A stretch of DNA of 56,827 nt, filler included, from an uncultured virus (IMG/VR IMGVR_UViG_2049941000_000867) (30 parts of one record of this genome joined end to end with filler, not necessarily neighbours in it), one strand, 5' to 3'; positions 8,456-32,162 are shown, counted from the whole stretch's first letter. Notes: generated by a model from the letters alone, not told the origin. Made by a program: numbers and translations.

Positions 8456-8653
8456 CATCGTTGTGGGTGCCCAGGAGGTAGGACTACATGCCTACACGTC
8501 CTTTGACGCACTCGGTGTATTCAGTCGCCGCACCGATGACCCAGCAGCGGCCTCACGCCCCTTTGACGTGTCACGCGATGGACTGGTGCCGTCGGGTGGT
8601 GCAGCAGCTGTCATCCTTGAAAGTGAAGCCCATGCCGCACAGGGCTGTCGCCG
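8456..8653 (+). CDS. Beta-ketoacyl-ACP synthase (FabB/FabF-like), middle fragment
   Basis: GAQEV...SFDALGVFS...ASRPFDVSRDGLVPSGGAAAVILES is the ketosynthase SRPFD..RDG signature. Confidence 0.9.
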
Positions 8654-8663
8654 NNNNNNNNNN

Positions 8664-8800
8664 ACCTCGTAGATCTGATTATGGGCGTAGAGACCGCCTT
8701 TGACATCAAACTCGACATGGCCGATGCAAAGAACACCAAGACCATTCGTGACCTGATAAACTTTATTCGTGAAGTAAAGCCGGAGCTATGCGCACAGTAA
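8664..8800 (+). CDS. Acyl carrier protein, C-terminal half (not in the supplied ORF track)
   Basis: Manual translation DLVDLIMGVETAFDIKLDMADAKNTKTIRDLINFIREVKPELCAQ*; matches ACP helix II-IV; overlaps the ketosynthase ATG by 13 nt. Confidence 0.85.
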
Positions 8801-9228
8801 TCACAGGCATGGGCATCTGGTCGTGCATCGGCGAAGACGTGCATACGGTGGAACAGTCGTTGCGCACTCGTTGTGCCGGCATTGGCACCGACTATCGCCG
8901 TACAGAATACGGCTACCAGTCGCCACTCACGGGTATAGTGCTCCGTCCTGACCTGAAGGCAGAGCATTTGAAACGTGCCCAGCGTACTTGCATGGGAGAG
9001 CCTGCCGAATATGCTTACATGGCGGTAAAGCAGGCCCTCGCTCAGAGTGGCATCACCGACCTGCATCACTGTGGCCTGATAGTCAGCAATGACAGTACGG
9101 CTAATGCCCTGGCAGAGACAGAGGAAATCATGCAACTGCACCATGACAGCCGTCATTTGGGTGCAGGCATGGTGTTCCGTACATTGAACAGCACCGTGTC
9201 GATGTCGCTGGCTTCCATCTTTGGCATC
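8788..9228 (+). CDS. Beta-ketoacyl-ACP synthase, N-terminal fragment
   Basis: MRTVITGMGIWSCIG...GYQSPLTGIV...EYAYMA...NSTVSMSLASIFGI closely resembles Bacteroidales FabB-like enzymes. Confidence 0.9.
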
Positions 9229-9365
9229 NNNNNNNNNNNNNNNNNNNNNNNNNNNNNNNNNNNNNNNNNNNNTTAATTAATTAANNNNNNNNNNNNNNNN
9301 NNNNNNNNNNNNNNNNNNNNNNNNNNNNCAGCAGGTTCTCGTAATAACCAAAAACAATAAGAGTA

Positions 9366-9935
9366 ATGAACATTTTTAAGAAATGGCGTGAATATCGCGC
9401 CGCCAAGAGAAAGAAAAAGGAACTGCGTCAAACCAGCCGAGTATTTGGTCACATTGAACAGTTGACAAAGAGCCACATGCTCATTTGGGAACTGAAAGAC
9501 CGTCGCCTGTTTATTGCACAGCCATTGGCCATGGTCATGCTGTCGCGTGGTGCTGAAGCATGGCGAAACTTCCTGAACAATGTCTATCTGTATCATGTCT
9601 TCTGCTTGCAACAGCAGCAGTGGGATCAGTATGTGCTCGACTTGCAGCGTAAGGCTGTGGCAGAGCGCGTGGCCAGTGGTATCAAGGTGAAGCCAGGCGA
9701 ACTGGACCGTATTCGTCGTGCTGTGCGTGACGGCATCAATAAGGATGGTGTGGCACTGCCTCCCATCGAGGCGTTTGATTTCTATATCATTGCCGACAAT
9801 GCCAGTGGCGACGCACAGGCTGAGATCACCTTCGTTGGTGAGTATAACCCCGAAACCCGATTGTTTGATATGGCATCCTGGGAGGAAGTGAAAGCTGCCG
9901 TTCAAGAGGCCAAAAAGAATACCGAAAAAGAGTAG
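9366..9935 (+). CDS. Hypothetical phage protein (189 aa)
   Basis: Complete ORF immediately upstream of the ACP start; no recognised motif. Confidence 0.6.
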   Translation: MNIFKKWREYRAAKRKKKELRQTSRVFGHIEQLTKSHMLIWELKDRRLFIAQPLAMVMLSRGAEAWRNFLNNVYLYHVFCLQQQQWDQYVLDLQRKAVAERVASGIKVKPGELDRIRRAVRDGINKDGVALPPIEAFDFYIIADNASGDAQAEITFVGEYNPETRLFDMASWEEVKAAVQEAKKNTEKE

Positions 9936-9940
9936 TGTCT

Positions 9941-10065
9941 ATGACTGAAAATGAATTATTCAATAGAATACTTGACGTGATGGAGGCTCGTTTCGACAAC
10001 ATGCCACCGCGTCATTCCGTCACTATCGACGATAACTTTGCCGAAGACCTGGACTTGGAATCGCT
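9941..10065 (+). CDS. Acyl carrier protein, N-terminal half
   Basis: MTENELFNRILDVM...DDNFAEDLDLESL; joined to 8664-8800 it gives DLDLESLDLVDLIM, the phosphopantetheine-Ser motif. Confidence 0.8.
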
Positions 10066-10075
10066 NNNNNNNNNN

Positions 10076-10586
10076 CAATGTGGTGCTCCGTTCCTTTGCC
10101 CGCCAGTCTGTGCAGGCAATGGAACAGGGCTTTCGTACTCAGCACGTCTGGCCTTATGAGATCTATCCTGGCTTTGCCAAGATAAACGCTATCCGTAAGG
10201 CTCGTGCCATGAGAGGTGGTAAGGATTGGTTTGCTACTGGTGAGGGTTTGAAGTCGTTTCAGTATGAAGTGATGTCTGCCGCACAGGGTAACGAGACCAT
10301 CCGTATTGAGTTCAATCACTACCTGCGCTTCGTTGACATGGGTACTGCCGGCGGTAAGCCTATCGAGACGGTGGACCGTGCGCGTAAAGCTCATTACAGC
10401 CGTCGCTATGTCACGATATGGAGCGCAAGGGATGGTGACACACATCGACCATTCTCTATAATGATGGAAGCCCGCCACCTTGAAGGGCGTATGCAACGCT
10501 ATCTCGAAGACTATTACGGACGTGAGGTGAATGCTCAGATCTATCGTACATTTAGTGGCCTCGGTGCCATTGACTTGACCCTGTAG
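10076..10586 (+). CDS. Putative neck/tail morphogenesis protein, 5-prime truncated
   Basis: WFATGEGLKSF...IEFNHYLRFVDMGT motif of conserved Bacteroidales prophage structural-region genes. Confidence 0.5.
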
Positions 10587-10868
10587 TGTGCCTGCTGTTT
10601 CTGCCAGCAGGTACTCATAATAACCAAAAACAATAAGAGTANNNNNNNNNNNNNNNNNNNNNNNNNNNNNNNNNNNNNNNNNNNNTTAATTAATTAANNN
10701 NNNNNNNNNNNNNNNNNNNNNNNNNNNNNNNNNNNNNNNNNTTTTCTATACCTGAGTCCTATACCTTTCTATACCAATCTTTTCATCAGTACATTATTTG
10801 ATGAATTGATGAAATAATGAATTTTTATTTTTCTCCGCTTTTCTATACTTAATGTTTTNNNNNNNNNN

Positions 10869-12156
10869 ATGCTACTACCAACAGCGATGACCGTAAAGGT
10901 AATATCCAACGTGCAGGATTCCAGTCTATCTACTGCCGCGTAACAGCCGTGGCCAACGTCGTTGAGCGTGTCACCAATGATGTTGTTGAGTATATCGCAC
11001 AGGATGCGCAATATGTGGCACAGGAAGGTGATAAGATTCGTGAAAATGGCCTCGTAACGGTGGCCATGCGTCAGTTCAATACGAATCCTGTCACTTGGTC
11101 GCCCGCTCCTGAACAGTGGAGTGTGCTGTCTGTCTCTGGCTTCTTTGGTGTGGATCATCCAGAGCGTCAGAAGTTCTTTATCTATACTACGTCCTATATG
11201 GCCCGCTTCGAGGGTGTAAACACATGGGAATGGGAAGAGCATTGCTTCATGGGTGGCTGGGGTGACTTGACCGGCTTTGCCATGCTGCAACTGGACGAAA
11301 ACCAACAGGTAGTATATCGTAAGGAGTTCAACGGCGAGGGCTTCGTCACCAAGGATGCGCATATCTATGGTGTGCTCGACCAGTTTACGCGATTCTCTGA
11401 CCGTATCGACATCAAACTGTCACGTCCTGATGGCACCATTGCAGACGGCGAACAGCAACGCGCCGACTTCATCCTGAAGGATGTAGAGGGTAACGTCATT
11501 AGCAGTGGCTATACGATGAGCATTACCCGACAAAGCGGCAATGCGGCTGCTGATACGGCATGGAATCAGGCCATGGCTACACAATACCCCAGCGGCATCC
11601 CGTCGGCTCTCTATTTCCAGTTTGCTGATGTGCCTGAAGGTGGTGCTGTCTATGTGGTGGCCGCCACACGTCAGGTAAGCGATGGGCAGGGTGGCTATGA
11701 CACCTATACAACCAGCGCGTCGTTTGTCCTCTCCCGTGCCTATGCCCAGGAGATTTTCTTAGGAGCGTGGGATGCTGCAACGCTCTATGAGCGCACTCCC
11801 CGACTCTACCCCACCGTCACACATAACGGCTGTAAGTGGTATCTCTATGCTGCCAGCAGTCTGAATAACGAGCCACACCCCACATCGACCTACTGGAAGA
11901 TGGTGTATGGTGCCAACGACCTTCAGATATGCTTCTACGACCGTGCAGGGCACCGCATCACATCAGCAGCGCAATATCCTGGTGCCGTTAATCTCTATCT
12001 CGACCCGCATCTGCTGTGTGGCAACTATGACATCACCGACCAGCTGACAGATAGCGATTGGTCATGGGAGCGTTACACCGGCAATTATGGTGAAGAGACC
12101 GATACCCGTAGTGCAGCCGATAAGCAGTCTGATCAGGGGTGGCCTAACGCCCACTG
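10869..12156 (+). CDS. Large tail/virion protein, internal fragment
   Basis: Long open frame rich in Y/W/G/T, with GAWDAATLY and WSWERYTG motifs typical of Bacteroidales phage tail proteins. Confidence 0.6.
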
Positions 12157-12256
12157 NNNNNNNNNNNNNNNNNNNNNNNNNNNNNNNNNNNNNNNNNNNN
12201 TTAATTAATTAANNNNNNNNNNNNNNNNNNNNNNNNNNNNNNNNNNNNNNNNNNNN

Positions 12257-12544
12257 CGATAATGCCGAAGCAGAAGCCATCACCTCTCTCTCGCTCTTTG
12301 CGCCCGTGCCAGCTGGCTCTCCTGCGGGTCCCTACGTCGTAAGTACCAAGTGCTACACAGGCCATGAGTGCTGGATGTCGGGTGTGTCACAGGTGGTTTA
12401 TACGCTGATTCAGATGCAGGAGCGTTTCATTGCGCCTCACATCAATCTCACTCAGCCCGATAAGGCTGCTGAACAGTTACGCATCCCCACTACCCTTGTA
12501 GATAACGTCACCATCCGTCATGCGCTCTGCAATGCCTTTGGCTT
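12257..12544 (+). CDS. Beta-ketoacyl-ACP synthase, C-terminal fragment
   Basis: EAEAI...STKCYTGHECWMSG...IAPHINL...ALCNAFGF: conserved Lys/His (K..TGH) and the N.FGFGG motif; contains a VPAGSPAG insert. Confidence 0.88.
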
Positions 12545-12554
12545 NNNNNNNNNN

Positions 12555-13167
12555 GGAAAGAATAAACCTGCAACTCCCCACCTCTTATAACCGCTGTACG
12601 CCGGCACAGCTCCGTGCTATTGCTGCAATCATGGCCGACCGTGGACTGCACACCTCCCGTCTGCATCCCTACGATCATTTTGAGGTGAAGGTGGCGGTAT
12701 TCTTCCGACTTACGGGCATAGAGGTGGTGGAGCCTGTCAATCCGCGTGTCAACGTAGAAGACCAATACTACACATGCCGACAAACGCCCTGGACGCTCGA
12801 AGAGGAAAACAGTCGTTGGTTCCGTATGCTACGCTGGTATCGTAGCTTTAAGGCATGGTTCCGTCGCTCAGTCCTCGGACATGATGACACTTTTTCGCTC
12901 TATCTCTGGCAAATCAACTACTGGCTGACTCCGCATAAGAATCTCATCAATGGAAAAGACATACCTGGTATGCTCGATTGGCTCGATGCTGACAGCCGCG
13001 ACCACCTCCTGCGCTTCCCGTTCCCGACGGTGTACCGTCGCCGTCACTCCAGTTGGTTCTCTATCGGCAAAAAGGTGGAGTTTCATGGACCGTCACCATT
13101 CATGGACGGCTTCATTTGGCGACGCTACCGTTTTGCCCAGGACTACATGCAGGTGTATGTCAGGCCA
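12555..13167 (+). CDS. Conserved phage structural-region protein, fragment
   Basis: INLQLPTSYNRCTPAQLR... open frame between gaps. Confidence 0.5.
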
Positions 13168-14108
13168 NNNNNNNNNNGCCAGCATCGACGGTTACGGCTT
13201 CAGTACGTCACCGAATATCATCAGTCCGTCGGCTGACAGCATTTTCCGCTCAATGACCAACGCCCTGAAGGATGCGAATCTTNNNNNNNNNNNNNNNNNN
13301 NNNNNNNNNNNNNNNNNNNNNNNNNNNNNNNNNNNNNNNNNNNNNNNNNNNNNNNNNNNNNNNNNNNNNNNNNNNNNNNNNNNNNNNNNNNNNNNNNNNN
13401 NNNNNNNNNNNNNNNNNNNNNNNNNNNNNNNNNNNNNNNNNNNNNNNNNNNNNNNNNNNNNNNNNNNNNNNNNNNNNNNNNNNNNNNNNNNNNNNNNNNN
13501 NNNNNNNNNNNNNNNNNNNNNNNNNNNNNNNNNNNNNNNNNNNNNNNNNNNNNNNNNNNNNNNNNNNNNNNNNNNNNNNNNNNNNNNNNNNNNNNNNNNN
13601 NNNNNNNNNNNNNNNNNNNNNNNNNNNNNNNNNNNNNNNNNNNNNNNNNNNNNNNNNNNNNNNNNNNNNNNNNNNNNNNNNNNNNNNNNNNNNNNNNNNN
13701 NNNNNNNNNNNNNNNNNNNNNNNNNNNNNNNNNNNNNNNNNNNNNNNNNNNNNNNNNNNNNNNNNNNNNNNNNNNNNNNNNNNNNNNNNNNNNNNNNNNN
13801 NNNNNNNNNNNNNNNNNNNNNNNNNNNNNNNNNNNNNNNNNNNNNNNNNNNNNNNNNNNNNNNNNNNNNNNNNNNNNNNNNNNNNNNNNNNNNNNNNNNN
13901 NNNNNNNNNNNNNNNNNNNNNNNNNNNNNNNNNNNNNNNNNNNNNNNNNNNNNNNNNNNNNNNNNNNNNNNNNNNNNNNNNNNNNNNNNNNNNNNNNNNN
14001 NNNNNNNNNNNNNNNNNNNNNNNNNNNNNNNNNNNNNNNNNNNNNNNNNNNNNNNNNNNNNNNNNNNNNNNNNNNNNNNNNNNNNNNNNNNNNNNNNNNN
14101 NNNNNNNN

Positions 14109-14673
14109 AGTAAAGGCTAAGAGCGACTGACCGGCATTGTCACGGTTAGAGAGCCACTGATTGATTTGCGTATAGAGTTTATCGCGTATCTCTGCCTGCT
14201 TCTTTCTATCAGACTGTGCTTTCTTCTGAATGAAGAGTTGCTGCATATAATCGTTGTGCAGGTAGATGATACGGCCAATGATATTGCTATTCTTCTTACG
14301 GTTGTAGCGGTCACTGATAATCGTAGAAAGATACTCATAGATATCACCACCAAAGATGGAATGCCAGGCAGGAGTCGGATAATACGGACGGCCAGCAGTA
14401 GGATTGAACGTAGGCAGCACGAAGCGCGTAGGACGTTTGTTTACCGATACGTTCTTTTCCTTTGCCTCCCAAACCACCTCTTGCAGCGAAGTCAACGGTG
14501 AAGCGGGATTGAGAGCATGAATGGCATTGATAGGCGCGTTCTGGTCGCCTCCCTGGTCGAGCCAGGGCTTATCCAGCCAACGATTCGAGCAGTACACATA
14601 ATTGATACGCCCGTATTGATCCATTCGCTCCAATCTGGTCGTATGGCAACTACGGTATGACAATCCTGTAATG
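14109..14673 (-). CDS. Putative portal protein, middle fragment
   Basis: CHTTRLE...GRPYYPTPAWHSIF...NRDNAGQSLLAF; sequence overlap with the end of 4454-5344. Confidence 0.6.
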
Positions 14674-23325: not shown

Positions 23326-24196
23326 GGAACCATTGAGTGAAATATATAGATACTCAGGATCCTGCGTATCATCAATGGATGCAAAGGCCGTTGTCACACG
23401 GTTGTTATAGCTTGCATCCGTAAAGAAGTCACAGCGGAGAATGAGGTTATCCACGAAGTCTGCACCATAGAACGTGACGGAGTGGTTGTTTCTTGCAGCC
23501 ACATACTCATCACCCGTACCGGCATTGTACCACTTACAGTACCATGTGGCAGGCGACTGGCCATCCTCACCATAGAGCGAGGCCGTGACGGTGACAGCCT
23601 GGTCACCAGAGATTACACAACNNNNNNNNNNGTGCGGTGATAATGGCCGACTCAGGCGACAGCAGGCCCAAGAATCCCTGTGCAGACATCTGAGCAATCT
23701 TGACATCCACCTGACACTGGAACGGCTGCTGCTTACCCAGAATCTCCACCGAACCCTCATAACCGATAGTATCAAGGTCAATGTTGGTAGGCGAAGCCAG
23801 GTTAGCGATGACAGTCAGACAGGGCACCAGGTAGCTGGATCCACCAAGTGACACCGTAGTAGTGCCGACGTGGAAGAGCGGATCATTGTTAGCATCAAGG
23901 AAGTTGGTAGAATCACCACTATTGTCAAAGGTAATCACCACATCGTTATAGAGCCAATGCGTATTGACCAACTGTGAGTTGTTCATATACTGCACACCCT
24001 TACGGATGACGGGATAGACACGCGGCTGGCTGGGATTGGGATCGGCCTGCGTCGCTTTCCAGTTAGGAATAGCCTTTTGGGTATTGTTATTCCAGTTCTG
24101 GGAGAGCGTACCGTCGATGCGCAATGAGCCTTGCACAGTGATACCTTCCTGAAGGGCAGTGATGGCGAAATGATTGGAAATTGTTGGAGCTGGCAT
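23326..24196 (-). CDS. Virion structural protein (MPAPTISNHFAIT...), fragments
   Basis: ATG at 24196 with an A-rich leader; Ig-like beta composition; IDDTQDP motif. Confidence 0.55.
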
Positions 24197-24243
24197 ATTC
24201 TTTTCTTTTTAGGGCCGTGGCGATGCCACAGCATACGAAACAT

Positions 24244-24729
24244 TTATGAGGTGAGAATGGCAGCGATGAGCGTTATGTAACAAAGGACTTCAAGAATGAA
24301 AATCCCTTTACCCTCAAGGATGCGCATAGTAGAAGATGCAATAAGCGGCACCAGGACAAACCAAAGCAAGAGCCACCAGGGACAGATGAGCATGACACAC
24401 AGCTGGGAACCAATGCCGGCAGCAATGGCCAGGATGTTATGCGCTGTGTTCGGGTCATGTCGCACGAGCGGCATTGCTCCCACGAAAGCGAGAGCGGCGA
24501 TGGTCAGGAATCCTACAAACTGGAAGATGGAGCCATCCAGCGCGTCGAGCAATGCAGGACATATACCAAAGGCCATCGACCAGATGAAGAGCGTCCACAC
24601 GAACTGATAACCTTTGGAGAGGTTAAACACCATGTGCGATATAGACGCAGGCAATTCGCGGTGCAGGTAGATAGCCGTCCCCACATAGAGGACAGCTATC
24701 AGCACGGAGAGTAGGAGTAATGCAGTCAT
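24244..24729 (-). CDS. Multi-pass membrane protein
   Basis: Five to six hydrophobic segments, P.SIS motif; complete ORF after the DUF4376-like gene. Confidence 0.7.
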   Translation of the reverse strand: MTALLLLSVLIAVLYVGTAIYLHRELPASISHMVFNLSKGYQFVWTLFIWSMAFGICPALLDALDGSIFQFVGFLTIAALAFVGAMPLVRHDPNTAHNILAIAAGIGSQLCVMLICPWWLLLWFVLVPLIASSTMRILEGKGIFILEVLCYITLIAAILTS

Positions 24730-24742
24730 GGGCACCTATACA

Positions 24743-25405
24743 TTAAAACTCCAAGTGAGCGGGATAGCCCTGTGTGAAGTCGTAGGACTTAATGGCATCC
24801 ACATCATTGAGAGCAGCGATAGCGGCCTTGTGTTCAGCCGTCTTATCGTAGCACTCGCTGGCATAGACTTCGAGGGCCGAAAGCATCTGAAGACCAGCAT
24901 CGGGCGTGATGGTAAACGACTGTGTACCGAGCCAGAGCGTCGATGTAGTCTTACCCACAGCCTTCTCAGCATTCAGACGGGCAATCAGTCCGTTACGGGT
25001 GTCTTTGTCAAGCCACATGGGAACACCGTCATAAGAGAACTGGTTGACAGCATCAGAAGCATCATACTCACTGATACGAGCTATCTGCATCTGACGGGCC
25101 AGTTCCAGCGCGTTACCAGGCAGTAAGCCTGCCTCATTAGCCGTCAGCAGTGCCTCGGCAGCCACGGCCACAGCCTTGAACTCATCGAAGCCCTCTTTCA
25201 GCAATGCCTTGGTGACATTCTCCAGGGTAAACGGATTAGAAACACGGATGACATAAGCCAGATATACCTTACGGGTCTCAGACTCCTGTCCTTCCTCACC
25301 ATTGTTAATCACTTGATCCACTTCCTCAGTGTCGAAGCAGATGCGGAGCACGGTTCCCTCTAACTCCACGGGAGCCGGATTCTCGGTAAACTCTGATTTC
25401 TTCAT
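24743..25405 (-). CDS. DUF4376-like tail fibre-associated protein
   Basis: YDASDAVNQF...MWLDKDTRNGL...ALEVYASECYDKTAEHKAAI...YDFTQGYP. Confidence 0.75.
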   Translation of the reverse strand: MKKSEFTENPAPVELEGTVLRICFDTEEVDQVINNGEEGQESETRKVYLAYVIRVSNPFTLENVTKALLKEGFDEFKAVAVAAEALLTANEAGLLPGNALELARQMQIARISEYDASDAVNQFSYDGVPMWLDKDTRNGLIARLNAEKAVGKTTSTLWLGTQSFTITPDAGLQMLSALEVYASECYDKTAEHKAAIAALNDVDAIKSYDFTQGYPAHLEF

Positions 25406-25606
25406 TGTTTTTTATTTTAAGGGGTTATACGATATTTCTTATCTCGATGCCAACCACAGCCGATAACGGCTGGGAACGGTGGTTATGTTATCTCGTAGTC
25501 GGGAAGACCGGCAGCGTTACAGCGTACAATGGTGCCCGTGAATGGGAATCCATCGTGAGCATTGATGTAGTCGAGCGTCTGAATGAGTTTCTGGTTNNNN
25601 NNNNNN

Positions 25607-31665: not shown

Positions 31666-32136
31666 ACCCTGCATGGCACGGATGTTTACCTCATTAAAGG
31701 CATCCTCGTAAGTCTTGATGCGCATAGTGACGGGAATAGAGGTGTCGATGACCGGCTGCTGGTCTTCACTCGAAGCTGACGCTTCAAGCACAGGGGTTTT
31801 TTCTTCCGTTTCAGGCTCATCGGCAGGTGTCAGACAGGACCAGTCTTCAGCAAAGATATCTTCCCATGTTGGGATGAAGTATGTGGCACTGGCAGGAGTC
31901 TTTTCATCATCGACAAATGTAATGACGATTACCTGGTCATGGTATGAGATTTCACCAGAGCCAACAGTGCTGATTTTGGGTTTGATACTTGCAGGCAATG
32001 AGGTCATCTTAGGCACGATGTCCTTTGAGATACACTGCGGAATTTGACGGATGATTTCGCGGTTATCAGTCCACGAAATACGACGGGCAGAACCACCCTT
32101 TTTCAGACATTCGATTACATCTTGAAATTTTGCCAT
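31666..32136 (-). CDS. DUF2829 / Tad2-like protein with a C-terminal extension, 3-prime truncated
   Basis: F.DVIECLKKG..ARRISW...IVPKMTSLP...YHDQ...FIPTWEDIFAEDW. Confidence 0.7.
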
Positions 32137-32162
32137 AGTTTTTTTGTTTTTANNNNNNNNNN

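Follow-up and report, generated by a model that had tools for sequence, protein, structure and literature searches.

Why does a tailed phage keep an acyl carrier protein (ACP) beside a beta-ketoacyl synthase (ketosynthase, KS) among the genes for its tail? The question is raised by positions 8456 to 12544 of a 56,827-base stretch of DNA from an uncultured virus (IMG/VR IMGVR_UViG_2049941000_000867); the whole of that stretch is referred to below as the window. The reading favoured here, to which we give a probability of roughly 0.6, is that the pair is a working, phage-private cassette of carrier plus condensing enzyme, that it is accessory to the phage and derived from a specialised-lipid gene cluster of Bacteroidales, and that it would yield a dedicated acyl-ACP.

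The carrier and the ketosynthase in a tailed-phage genome

The window was assembled from 30 scaffolds; N44-TTAATTAATTAA-N44 linkers connect them, and each may be interrupted by gaps of 10 N, of which there are many. The reference copy was C37, a 104,257-bp contig of the nearest genome (G001, a bacterial metagenome-assembled genome, or MAG), and other viral records were compared as well. Of the 50.6 kb of N-free sequence in the window, 41.3 kb mapped onto C37, most pieces at 94-100% identity; when each N-free piece of the locus was mapped, identity was 97.9-99.5%. The two ends of C37 carry the same 99 bases (a 99-bp terminal repeat), which indicates a circularly assembled element. C37 encodes tail and head proteins (a 1879-aa minor-tail/tape-measure protein with PF10145, a head-maturation protease and tail proteins), lysis proteins (an amidase endolysin and a holin-family protein) and, in addition, a reverse transcriptase of the diversity-generating retroelement (DGR) type, ParA, a beta-clamp, a dUTPase, ThyX and several DNA methyltransferases. 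What the window holds, then, is a circular tailed phage of about 104 kb in the form of a jumbled draft. The titles of the MAG records suggest that the hosts are Prevotella and other Bacteroidales, binning being weak evidence of a host.

The original prediction, made from the window alone, had rebuilt five shuffled pieces into one run that placed a phage-borne pair within virion genes. Mapping onto C37 reproduced that order, and in C37 the pair stands in a same-strand run of tail-module genes. The parts of the two genes in the window are as follows.

9941..10065, + strand: ACP, N-terminal part, ending ...DLDLES, with the serine as putative site of phosphopantetheine attachment
8664..8800, + strand: ACP, C-terminal part, with its stop codon at 8798-8800; PF00550 at 17.6 bits on this piece alone
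8788..9228, + strand: KS residues 1-147 (PF00109), equivalent to C37 25175-25615; the ATG lies inside the 3' end of the ACP gene
8456..8653, + strand: KS residues 181-246 (SRPFD..RDGLVPSGG; PF00109), equivalent to C37 25715-25911
13178..13282, + strand: KS residues 249-283 (ASIDGYGFSTS...), equivalent to C37 25919-26022 at 99%
12257..12544, + strand: KS residues 302-397 (K332, TGHE with His337, NAFG; PF02801), equivalent to C37 26078-26364

The two halves of the ACP had been predicted to join at the serine; C37 reads continuously across that junction, with the serine kept (the ACP across the join in C37 is DLDLESLDLVDLIM). The protein is 89 aa long from a GTG and 87 aa from the ATG, the alternative GTG start being at 9935, and relatives align from the ATG. 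An overlap of 13 nt between the ACP stop and the KS start, read from the draft, is the same in C37. The catalytic Cys and the first His of the KS had been placed in gaps of the window, and Cys158 and His294 are indeed missing there and present in C37. Three of the KS pieces had been listed correctly; the fourth, at 13178-13282, had been overlooked, as had the start of the downstream gene p375 at 12555-13167. All four KS pieces are open in frame and together cover 344 of the 411 residues, and window pieces scored 23.1, 27.9 and 28.1 bits against ketoacyl-synthase domains. Contiguity of the ACP and KS genes, which had been proposed as a check, was found in C37 and in two viral contigs (L012 and L013).

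Relative to C37, the scaffold at 12257-14673 runs in the order KS residues 302-397, p375 N-terminus, KS residues 249-283, an 826-N gap, and C37 16096-16659 reversed. Such a jumbled order indicates that the draft scaffolding is unreliable as well as fragmented.

The complete KS of C37 matched PF00109 (90.3 bits) and PF02801 (74.3 bits), for which the Pfam cut-off is 20.8, and aligned end to end with the solved chain 4xox_A, a 3-oxoacyl-ACP synthase (E 1e-57); in that alignment the Cys, the Lys, both His and the GFGG motif fall at matching positions. The proposed check of the Cys-His-His triad found C158, H294 and H337 intact in C37, and C158, H294, K332, H337 and F395-G399 were invariant in all 17 aligned members of the KS clade, down to 34% identity. 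By its domains and catalytic residues, the protein is a beta-ketoacyl-ACP synthase of the KAS I/II type (thiolase superfamily), for which condensing activity is predicted.

The complete ACP of C37 likewise matched PF00550 (37.1 bits; cut-off 20.8) as well as PHROG 5934 ('acyl carrier protein', category 'moron, auxiliary metabolic gene'). Its serine was present in all 42 unique ACPs of the family, within the motif L-(E/D)-S-(I/L)-D, which was mostly L-E-S-I/L-D and in some cases L-D-S, in contrast to the D-S-L usual in housekeeping AcpP. The NCBIfam AcpP models were both missed (TIGR00517, 51.3 against 70.45 bits; NF002150, 63.7 against 66 bits). On these features the phage ACP is a phosphopantetheine-binding carrier with a conserved serine, distinct from housekeeping AcpP, and its phosphopantetheinylation is predicted.

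The likeness to KAS I/II (FabB/FabF) with AcpP therefore extends to the same two Pfam domains, to a full-length alignment with KAS I-type chains (4xox_A best, followed by synthase I chains), to the shared Cys-His-His, Lys and GFGG, and to a carrier that is likewise small and acidic with its serine at the start of helix II. It does not extend to orthology with FabB/FabF, which had been the original assignment of the synthase. The KS reached 255.3 bits against the FabB model NF005935 (cut-off 630) and 212.4 against the fabF model TIGR03150 (cut-off 493.75); it failed every NCBIfam equivalog cut-off, and the ACP did the same. The KS is only 31% identical to the housekeeping fabF of the MAG, and its nearest cellular kin belong to flexirubin/aryl-polyene-like clusters, as described below. 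Unlike type II fatty-acid synthesis, the phage is without FabD, FabG, FabZ, FabI and AcpS by Pfam scans of phage genomes. The first four were absent from C37 (98 of 129 open reading frames, ORFs, scanned) and from the relative G007 (101 of 106 ORFs of at least 90 aa scanned). No phosphopantetheinyl transferase (PPTase, PF01648) was found in C37 or in G003-G006; one is present on a host contig of G001. The lack of a reductase, dehydratase or PPTase that had been observed in the window thus holds for the Pfam scans of the phage.

A mobile cassette and its ancestry

A word-indexed search returned hundreds of KS proteins at 67-71% identity, and 26 of the 120 clusters listed had a longest contig of 97-108 kb. 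In IMG/VR, 346 viral stretches encoded a relative of the KS, the best 80 of which were used as viral loci; most lay on contigs of 85-110 kb. As had been suggested for a search of phage databases, the pair recurred in related phages: 74 of these 80 loci had an ACP coding sequence no more than 500 nt from the KS (KS then ACP in 63, ACP then KS in 11). The six loci without an ACP comprised three with the KS at a contig end and three with a distant KS (31-34% identity). G007, a 105,587-bp record rated 100% complete, had 38 of its 106 ORFs of at least 90 aa in common with C37, at 21-54% identity, which indicates that the KS-bearing contigs are true relatives of C37.

The position of the pair varied. 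In C37 it sits between p189 and p375, and in L127 and L128 it comes after a tape-measure-like protein and p375. In loci at 67-71% identity it directly follows the tape-measure-like protein and precedes a 127-aa gene, a primase and ThyX (6 of the 6 loci with flanks), and in a distant group it sits between homologues of the C37 proteins p879 and p342. At least three insertion contexts and both gene orders were therefore seen, mostly among or beside tail genes, L129 and L146 being exceptions. Taken together, these comparisons show a conserved, catalytically intact and mobile two-gene unit, its genes held together by selection, in a large, uncultured family of 85-110 kb tailed phages.

Judged by its p879 protein, which had no match there, the family is without a relative among 50,697 GenBank phage records. 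A tblastn search of INPHARED with the KS gave a best match of 46% on a 6.8-kb faecal contig, the rest being no higher than 33.5% and many of them in bacterial-looking records filed as phage. The nearest virus record (G002) has no KS, p189 or p375; its contig stops at C37 23594, just before the locus, and is not evidence of absence. A literature search found no description of this phage family and no characterised phage ACP-KS pair, only reports at the level of annotation.

Relatives were also sampled independently of the KS, with a 663-aa marker protein encoded far from the cassette. This gave 178 relatives, the best 80 of which were kept, 32 of them at least 85 kb long. The KS was carried by 27 of these 32 long records, and by 24 of the 29 that were at least 90% complete. 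By KS match, the five long records without it were G012, G026, G031, G036 and G037. G012 agrees with G002 in record name and length, and its sequence is interrupted at the locus; G026, G031 and G037 have direct terminal repeats and are rated 100% complete, and G036 is rated 94% complete. In the latter four a p342 homologue follows the p879 homologue within about 40 nt, which is an empty site, while in the KS-bearing relative G030 the KS comes after p879, so that the same junction is occupied. The comparison of empty and occupied p879-p342 junctions indicates that the pair is a discrete 1.5-kb cassette, present or absent as a unit, and three complete relatives without it indicate that it is dispensable for building the virion. 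Judged from its presence or absence between conserved flanks and its varied positions, the pair is an accessory, moron-like module.

The origin of the cassette was approached through a search of cellular genomes, one per species, which gave 306 matching stretches; the analysis used the best 80. Five of the 80 loci were phage-type, in records titled as uncultured Prevotellaceae, Prevotella or Bacteroidaceae MAGs, mostly ruminant. At 66 loci the KS (46-50% identity) stood beside an aromatic amino-acid lyase (TAL), an O-methyltransferase (OMT) or an LpxL-like acyltransferase; seven had only a short-chain dehydrogenase (SDR) gene upstream and two had no cluster gene. Hence at least one of SDR, TAL, OMT, ACP or LpxL-like acyltransferase was found beside the KS at 73 of the 75 non-phage loci (40-50% identity). 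The published flexirubin cluster is described as holding a tyrosine ammonia-lyase, several KS genes, reductases, dehydratases and an acyltransferase (PMC3992019), and the gene set of the cellular loci matches the set given in that description.

A quick maximum-likelihood tree of 83 rows, among them a random draw of 22 from the 66 cluster-type KS as well as 33 representatives taken from an exhaustive search, placed the phage KS loci in one clade of 29 rows (SH-aLRT 97). This clade was sister (91) to the cluster-type KS of Bacteroidales, with fabF outside; it is separate from the cluster KS and itself diverse. In agreement with the tree, the phage ACPs scored a mean of 40-41 bits against the ACP of a flexirubin-type cluster, compared to 14.6 bits against the AcpP of the MAG. 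The flexirubin/aryl-polyene-like clusters thus contain both the nearest cellular kin of the KS, at 46-50%, and the closest type of ACP, and in some of them the KS is directly followed by the ACP, the commonest order among the phages. Of such a cluster the phage retains the KS and ACP alone; a lyase, a ketoreductase, a dehydratase, a methyltransferase and an LpxL-like transferase were all not found. By Pfam, the partner enzymes that would make the locus a member of such a cluster were not found in C37 or G007, and the LpxL-like PF03279 was absent from G007-G011. The cassette was probably captured from a specialised-lipid cluster of Bacteroidales of the flexirubin/aryl-polyene type, rather than from a housekeeping acpP-fabF pair, to judge from the tree and the profile scores.

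G001 itself has two KS genes, both on contigs other than C37. One lies next to an RNase III gene with AcpP upstream, and is the housekeeping fabF (31% identity to the phage KS); the other is 41% identical and lies at L010 (G001:C18 95746-99948), where an AraC regulator, a 377-aa GNAT-domain protein, this KS, an ACP and a 138-aa protein occur together; it groups with the flexirubin-type clade, and the cluster may be a dedicated N-acyl lipid system. Four flexirubin-type KS loci of Bacteroidales (L065, L072, L076 and L077) were found in bins titled Acidaminococcaceae, Lachnospiraceae, Staphylococcus and Dysosmobacter, the contigs of which are probably mis-binned.

Neighbouring genes and other features of the phage

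The same-strand order in C37 is p205, p181, a 12-bp hairpin, p189, ACP, KS (411 aa), p375 and p105. The gene order from p358 to a helix-turn-helix (HTH) gene was repeated in the independent viral contigs L012 and L013, at 98-100% protein identity. The neighbours of the pair in the window, and the window pieces that carry the upstream part, are listed below.

10076..10586, + strand: p181, C-terminal 169 of 181 aa, equivalent to C37 23784-24293; the protein upstream of the unit
10588..10614, + strand: hairpin without a U-tract, right after the p181 stop codon
9366..9935, + strand: p189, a conserved phage protein; its stop is 5 nt ahead of the ACP ATG
12555..13167, + strand: p375, N-terminal part of about 200 aa, equivalent to C37 26400-27005
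10076-10641: window piece equivalent to C37 23784-24348
9329-10065: window piece equivalent to C37 24312-25048
8664-9228: window piece equivalent to C37 25051-25615

The overlap claimed between the piece ending at 10641 and that starting at 9329 was read directly in the window copies, and is 37 nt with 2 mismatches. The hairpin that had been noted after the structural-type gene at 10076-10586 folds in its C37 copy at -22.3 kcal/mol (z = -4.06), and none of 200 shuffles folded as well; the window copy has one stem base changed relative to C37. In C37 the KS stop and the p375 ATG overlap by 13 nt, and the block from p205 to p105 is flanked by two long terminator-like hairpins with T-runs (L004 3004-3032 and 7858-7881). 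The totals of the sigma-70 and terminator scans were not above those of shuffled sequence (9 compared to 7.2 and 5 compared to 6.3). In RNA-labelled runs (four runs from four studies), contigs spanned the whole 9-kb stretch, and single contigs bridged p189-ACP-KS and KS-p375-p105; these are assembled contigs of depth 1-25, possibly containing DNA, and cannot prove transcription. From the common strand, the coupling and the flanking terminator-like hairpins, we infer that the cassette would be expressed together with late genes. Several contigs from the RNA libraries (runs X7 and X4) diverged from C37 exactly at the ACP/KS junction (L004:5183-5218, 5328) with unrelated flanks, as is expected if co-occurring relatives hold the KS in another context.

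Both p189 and p375 are conserved genes of the family that usually do not adjoin the pair. The p375 family comprises 260 proteins and has no Pfam domain. Its structural model (pLDDT 89.5) had no fold match in the PDB (Foldseek best E 0.088; VIA-align Z 5.6 over a 54-residue helical hairpin), and BFVD yielded only phage proteins that are uncharacterised, besides one weak row named 'tail assembly chaperone' (E 6.6e-3). Homologues of p189 occur in G003-G006 at 50-55% identity, in G005 directly upstream of a tape-measure-like gene; the model (pLDDT 88.6) had no clear fold (Foldseek best E 0.43; VIA-align Z 6.1 over 47 residues), and an ESM Atlas search with p189 gave nothing. As candidates for a known acyltransferase both proteins were rejected, because their confident models have no acyltransferase-like fold, a result that does not in itself rule out an acyltransferase. 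No Pfam, PHROG or PADLOC match was found for p181, and PADLOC gave no match for nine proteins of the locus. Small GNAT proteins are encoded in C37 (118 aa) and in G007 (130 and 189 aa), all far from the cassette.

Several further features of C37 were recorded. The reverse transcriptase of the phage DGR kind (L003:796-2139; C37 796-2142; phrog_1423, E 3e-68) has a DUF4376 protein and then a protein of 2036 aa after it; only the last ~110 nt of its gene lie inside a mapped window piece (23632-25596), and the locus is probably a diversity-generating retroelement that targets a tail protein. A 'large polyvalent protein' of 1152 aa, bearing LPD5 and LPD1 domains (L004:10917-14372; C37 30917-34375), is encoded about 3 kb downstream of the unit that contains the cassette. 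A 342-aa protein has a Tad2-like (Thoeris anti-defence 2) domain (PF11195, E 1.5e-6; L007:8930-9955; C37 88930-89958), and window positions 31666-32152 map within its gene. A 570-aa protein on the minus strand (L005:17158-18867; C37 57155-58867) has an N-terminal HicA-toxin-like domain (PF07927, 27.3 bits). The ParA-like partition ATPase (L005:2650-3510; C37 42650-43513) is conserved in G007, and no integrase was seen in the PHROG scan of C37; the phage may persist in a plasmid-like, episomal state.

Proposed function, alternatives and significance

The favoured reading, a private carrier plus condensing enzyme, builds on the observed anatomy, intact catalytic residues, family-wide linkage, ancestry and dispensability; each biochemical step we infer from what is established for fatty-acid and polyketide systems of type II. 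A host phosphopantetheinyl transferase would prime the phage ACP on its conserved serine, and host FabD would load malonate onto it. The phage KS, through Cys-His-His, would then condense a primer with malonyl-ACP, and any reduction or dehydration would be carried out by host enzymes. The resulting dedicated pool of acyl-ACP, produced alongside tail genes, could donate its acyl chains for a product that acts at the cell envelope; the chain might be accepted by a phage protein, in the manner of IacP, or by a host lipid.

Several results weigh against this reading. No convincing acyltransferase able to use acyl-ACP was identified in the phage, the coupled neighbours p375 and p189 gave confident models with no recognisable fold, and no neighbouring gene was constant across the family. 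The residue before the ACP serine is Glu instead of Asp, so that priming by an AcpS-type enzyme is an assumption. The sister relation in the KS tree comes from a quick search (SH-aLRT 91), and 11 of the 29 rows in the 'phage' clade are representatives of unknown origin. Furthermore, G001 shows no flexirubin-type KS, its own best matches being those at 41% and 31% in a bin that is 86% complete; simple insertion of the cassette into such a host pathway is therefore unsupported for the G001 bin.

A narrower proposal is that the private acyl-ACP serves protein lipidation, acylating one of the phage's tail, tape-measure or ejection proteins and so easing its entry through the Bacteroidales envelope. 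We regard it as unlikely. In most contexts the cassette is found within the tail module or next to it (at p879-p342, after the tape-measure-like protein, or at p189-p375), and a non-essential role would fit the KS-less relatives. A precedent is IacP of Salmonella SPI-1, a private ACP beside a membrane-penetrating machinery, which is reported to bind SipB directly; acylation of SipB is described there as non-essential, promoting membrane insertion, so that the modification is helpful rather than required (PMC5279801). However, IacP works without a KS of its own, a KS being unnecessary for the mere transfer of an acyl chain made by the host, and its likeness to the phage ACP is by analogy only. 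Neither an acceptor nor a transferase was found, the neighbours vary between lineages, and morons often stand among late genes without serving the virion.

It has also to be considered that the pair acts as a set of auxiliary metabolic genes that raise or redirect host synthesis of fatty acids, pigment or outer-membrane lipids during infection. Predicted Rhodobacteraceae prophages are reported to carry acpP, fabF and fabG as auxiliary metabolic genes, an ACP and KS on phage-like DNA being interpreted there as lipid-related (PMC8224337). PHROG 5934 places phage ACPs in 'moron, auxiliary metabolic gene', the ancestral cluster includes an LpxL-like acyltransferase, and flexirubin pigment is stated to be located in the outer membrane (PMC3992019). 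The prophage genes are described as keeping the host operon order fabG-acpP-fabF, with fabG included (PMC8224337), whereas the present cassette is family-wide, apparently of other ancestry and placed among tail genes. The KS (31% identity) and the ACP (mean 14.6 bits) are, moreover, far from the housekeeping genes, both are under all NCBIfam cut-offs, and so diverged a carrier suggests insulation from bulk fatty-acid synthesis. No flexirubin-type cluster was seen in G001. Overall, this proposal appears quite improbable.

That the two proteins are decoys or inhibitors, binding and blocking host ACP-dependent enzymes without catalysis, is very unlikely because the catalytic residues are invariant: the Cys, both His, the Lys and GFGG in 17 of 17 KS proteins and the serine in 42 of 42 ACPs form a pattern expected from selection for catalysis, and in favour of a decoy there is the acidic, ACP-like nature of the carrier and otherwise only the general idea put forward with the original prediction. 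An artefact, in which host lipid genes were mis-binned or mis-scaffolded into a phage draft, might be suspected from the jumbled scaffolds of the window and from the location of the contiguous copy within a bacterial MAG, but it is in effect refuted, given that the locus is contiguous in C37 with its terminal repeat and in two other viral contigs, that the KS occurs in 27 long viral records, and that the KS genes belonging to the host (41% and 31% identity) are on separate contigs.

To return to the cassette as a private source of acyl-ACP, phage ACP and fabF-like genes had previously been listed as 'auxiliary metabolic genes' by annotation only, as far as those accounts go (PMC8224337; PHROG 5934). 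What is new is an intact, mobile ACP-KS unit, found in hundreds of contigs of a family of phages of about 100 kb, the ancestry of the unit appearing to lie in a specialised-lipid cluster and not in bulk fatty-acid synthesis. Relatives with and without the KS that share the same flanking genes provide a natural experiment on the use of an acyl carrier by phages. A bolder and rather doubtful extension is that an entire family of abundant Bacteroidales phages of gut and rumen has its own lipid kit, derived from a pathway for pigment lipids, that builds an unusual acyl chain late in infection. The chain would end up on a protein of the tail tip, tape measure or ejection machinery, or on the outer membrane of the host at the site of exit or entry. 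If this were true, lipidation would be an optional tool of the phage for crossing the Bacteroidales envelope; and a product that modified virion or envelope would represent a new kind of chemistry at the phage-host interface in gut and rumen.

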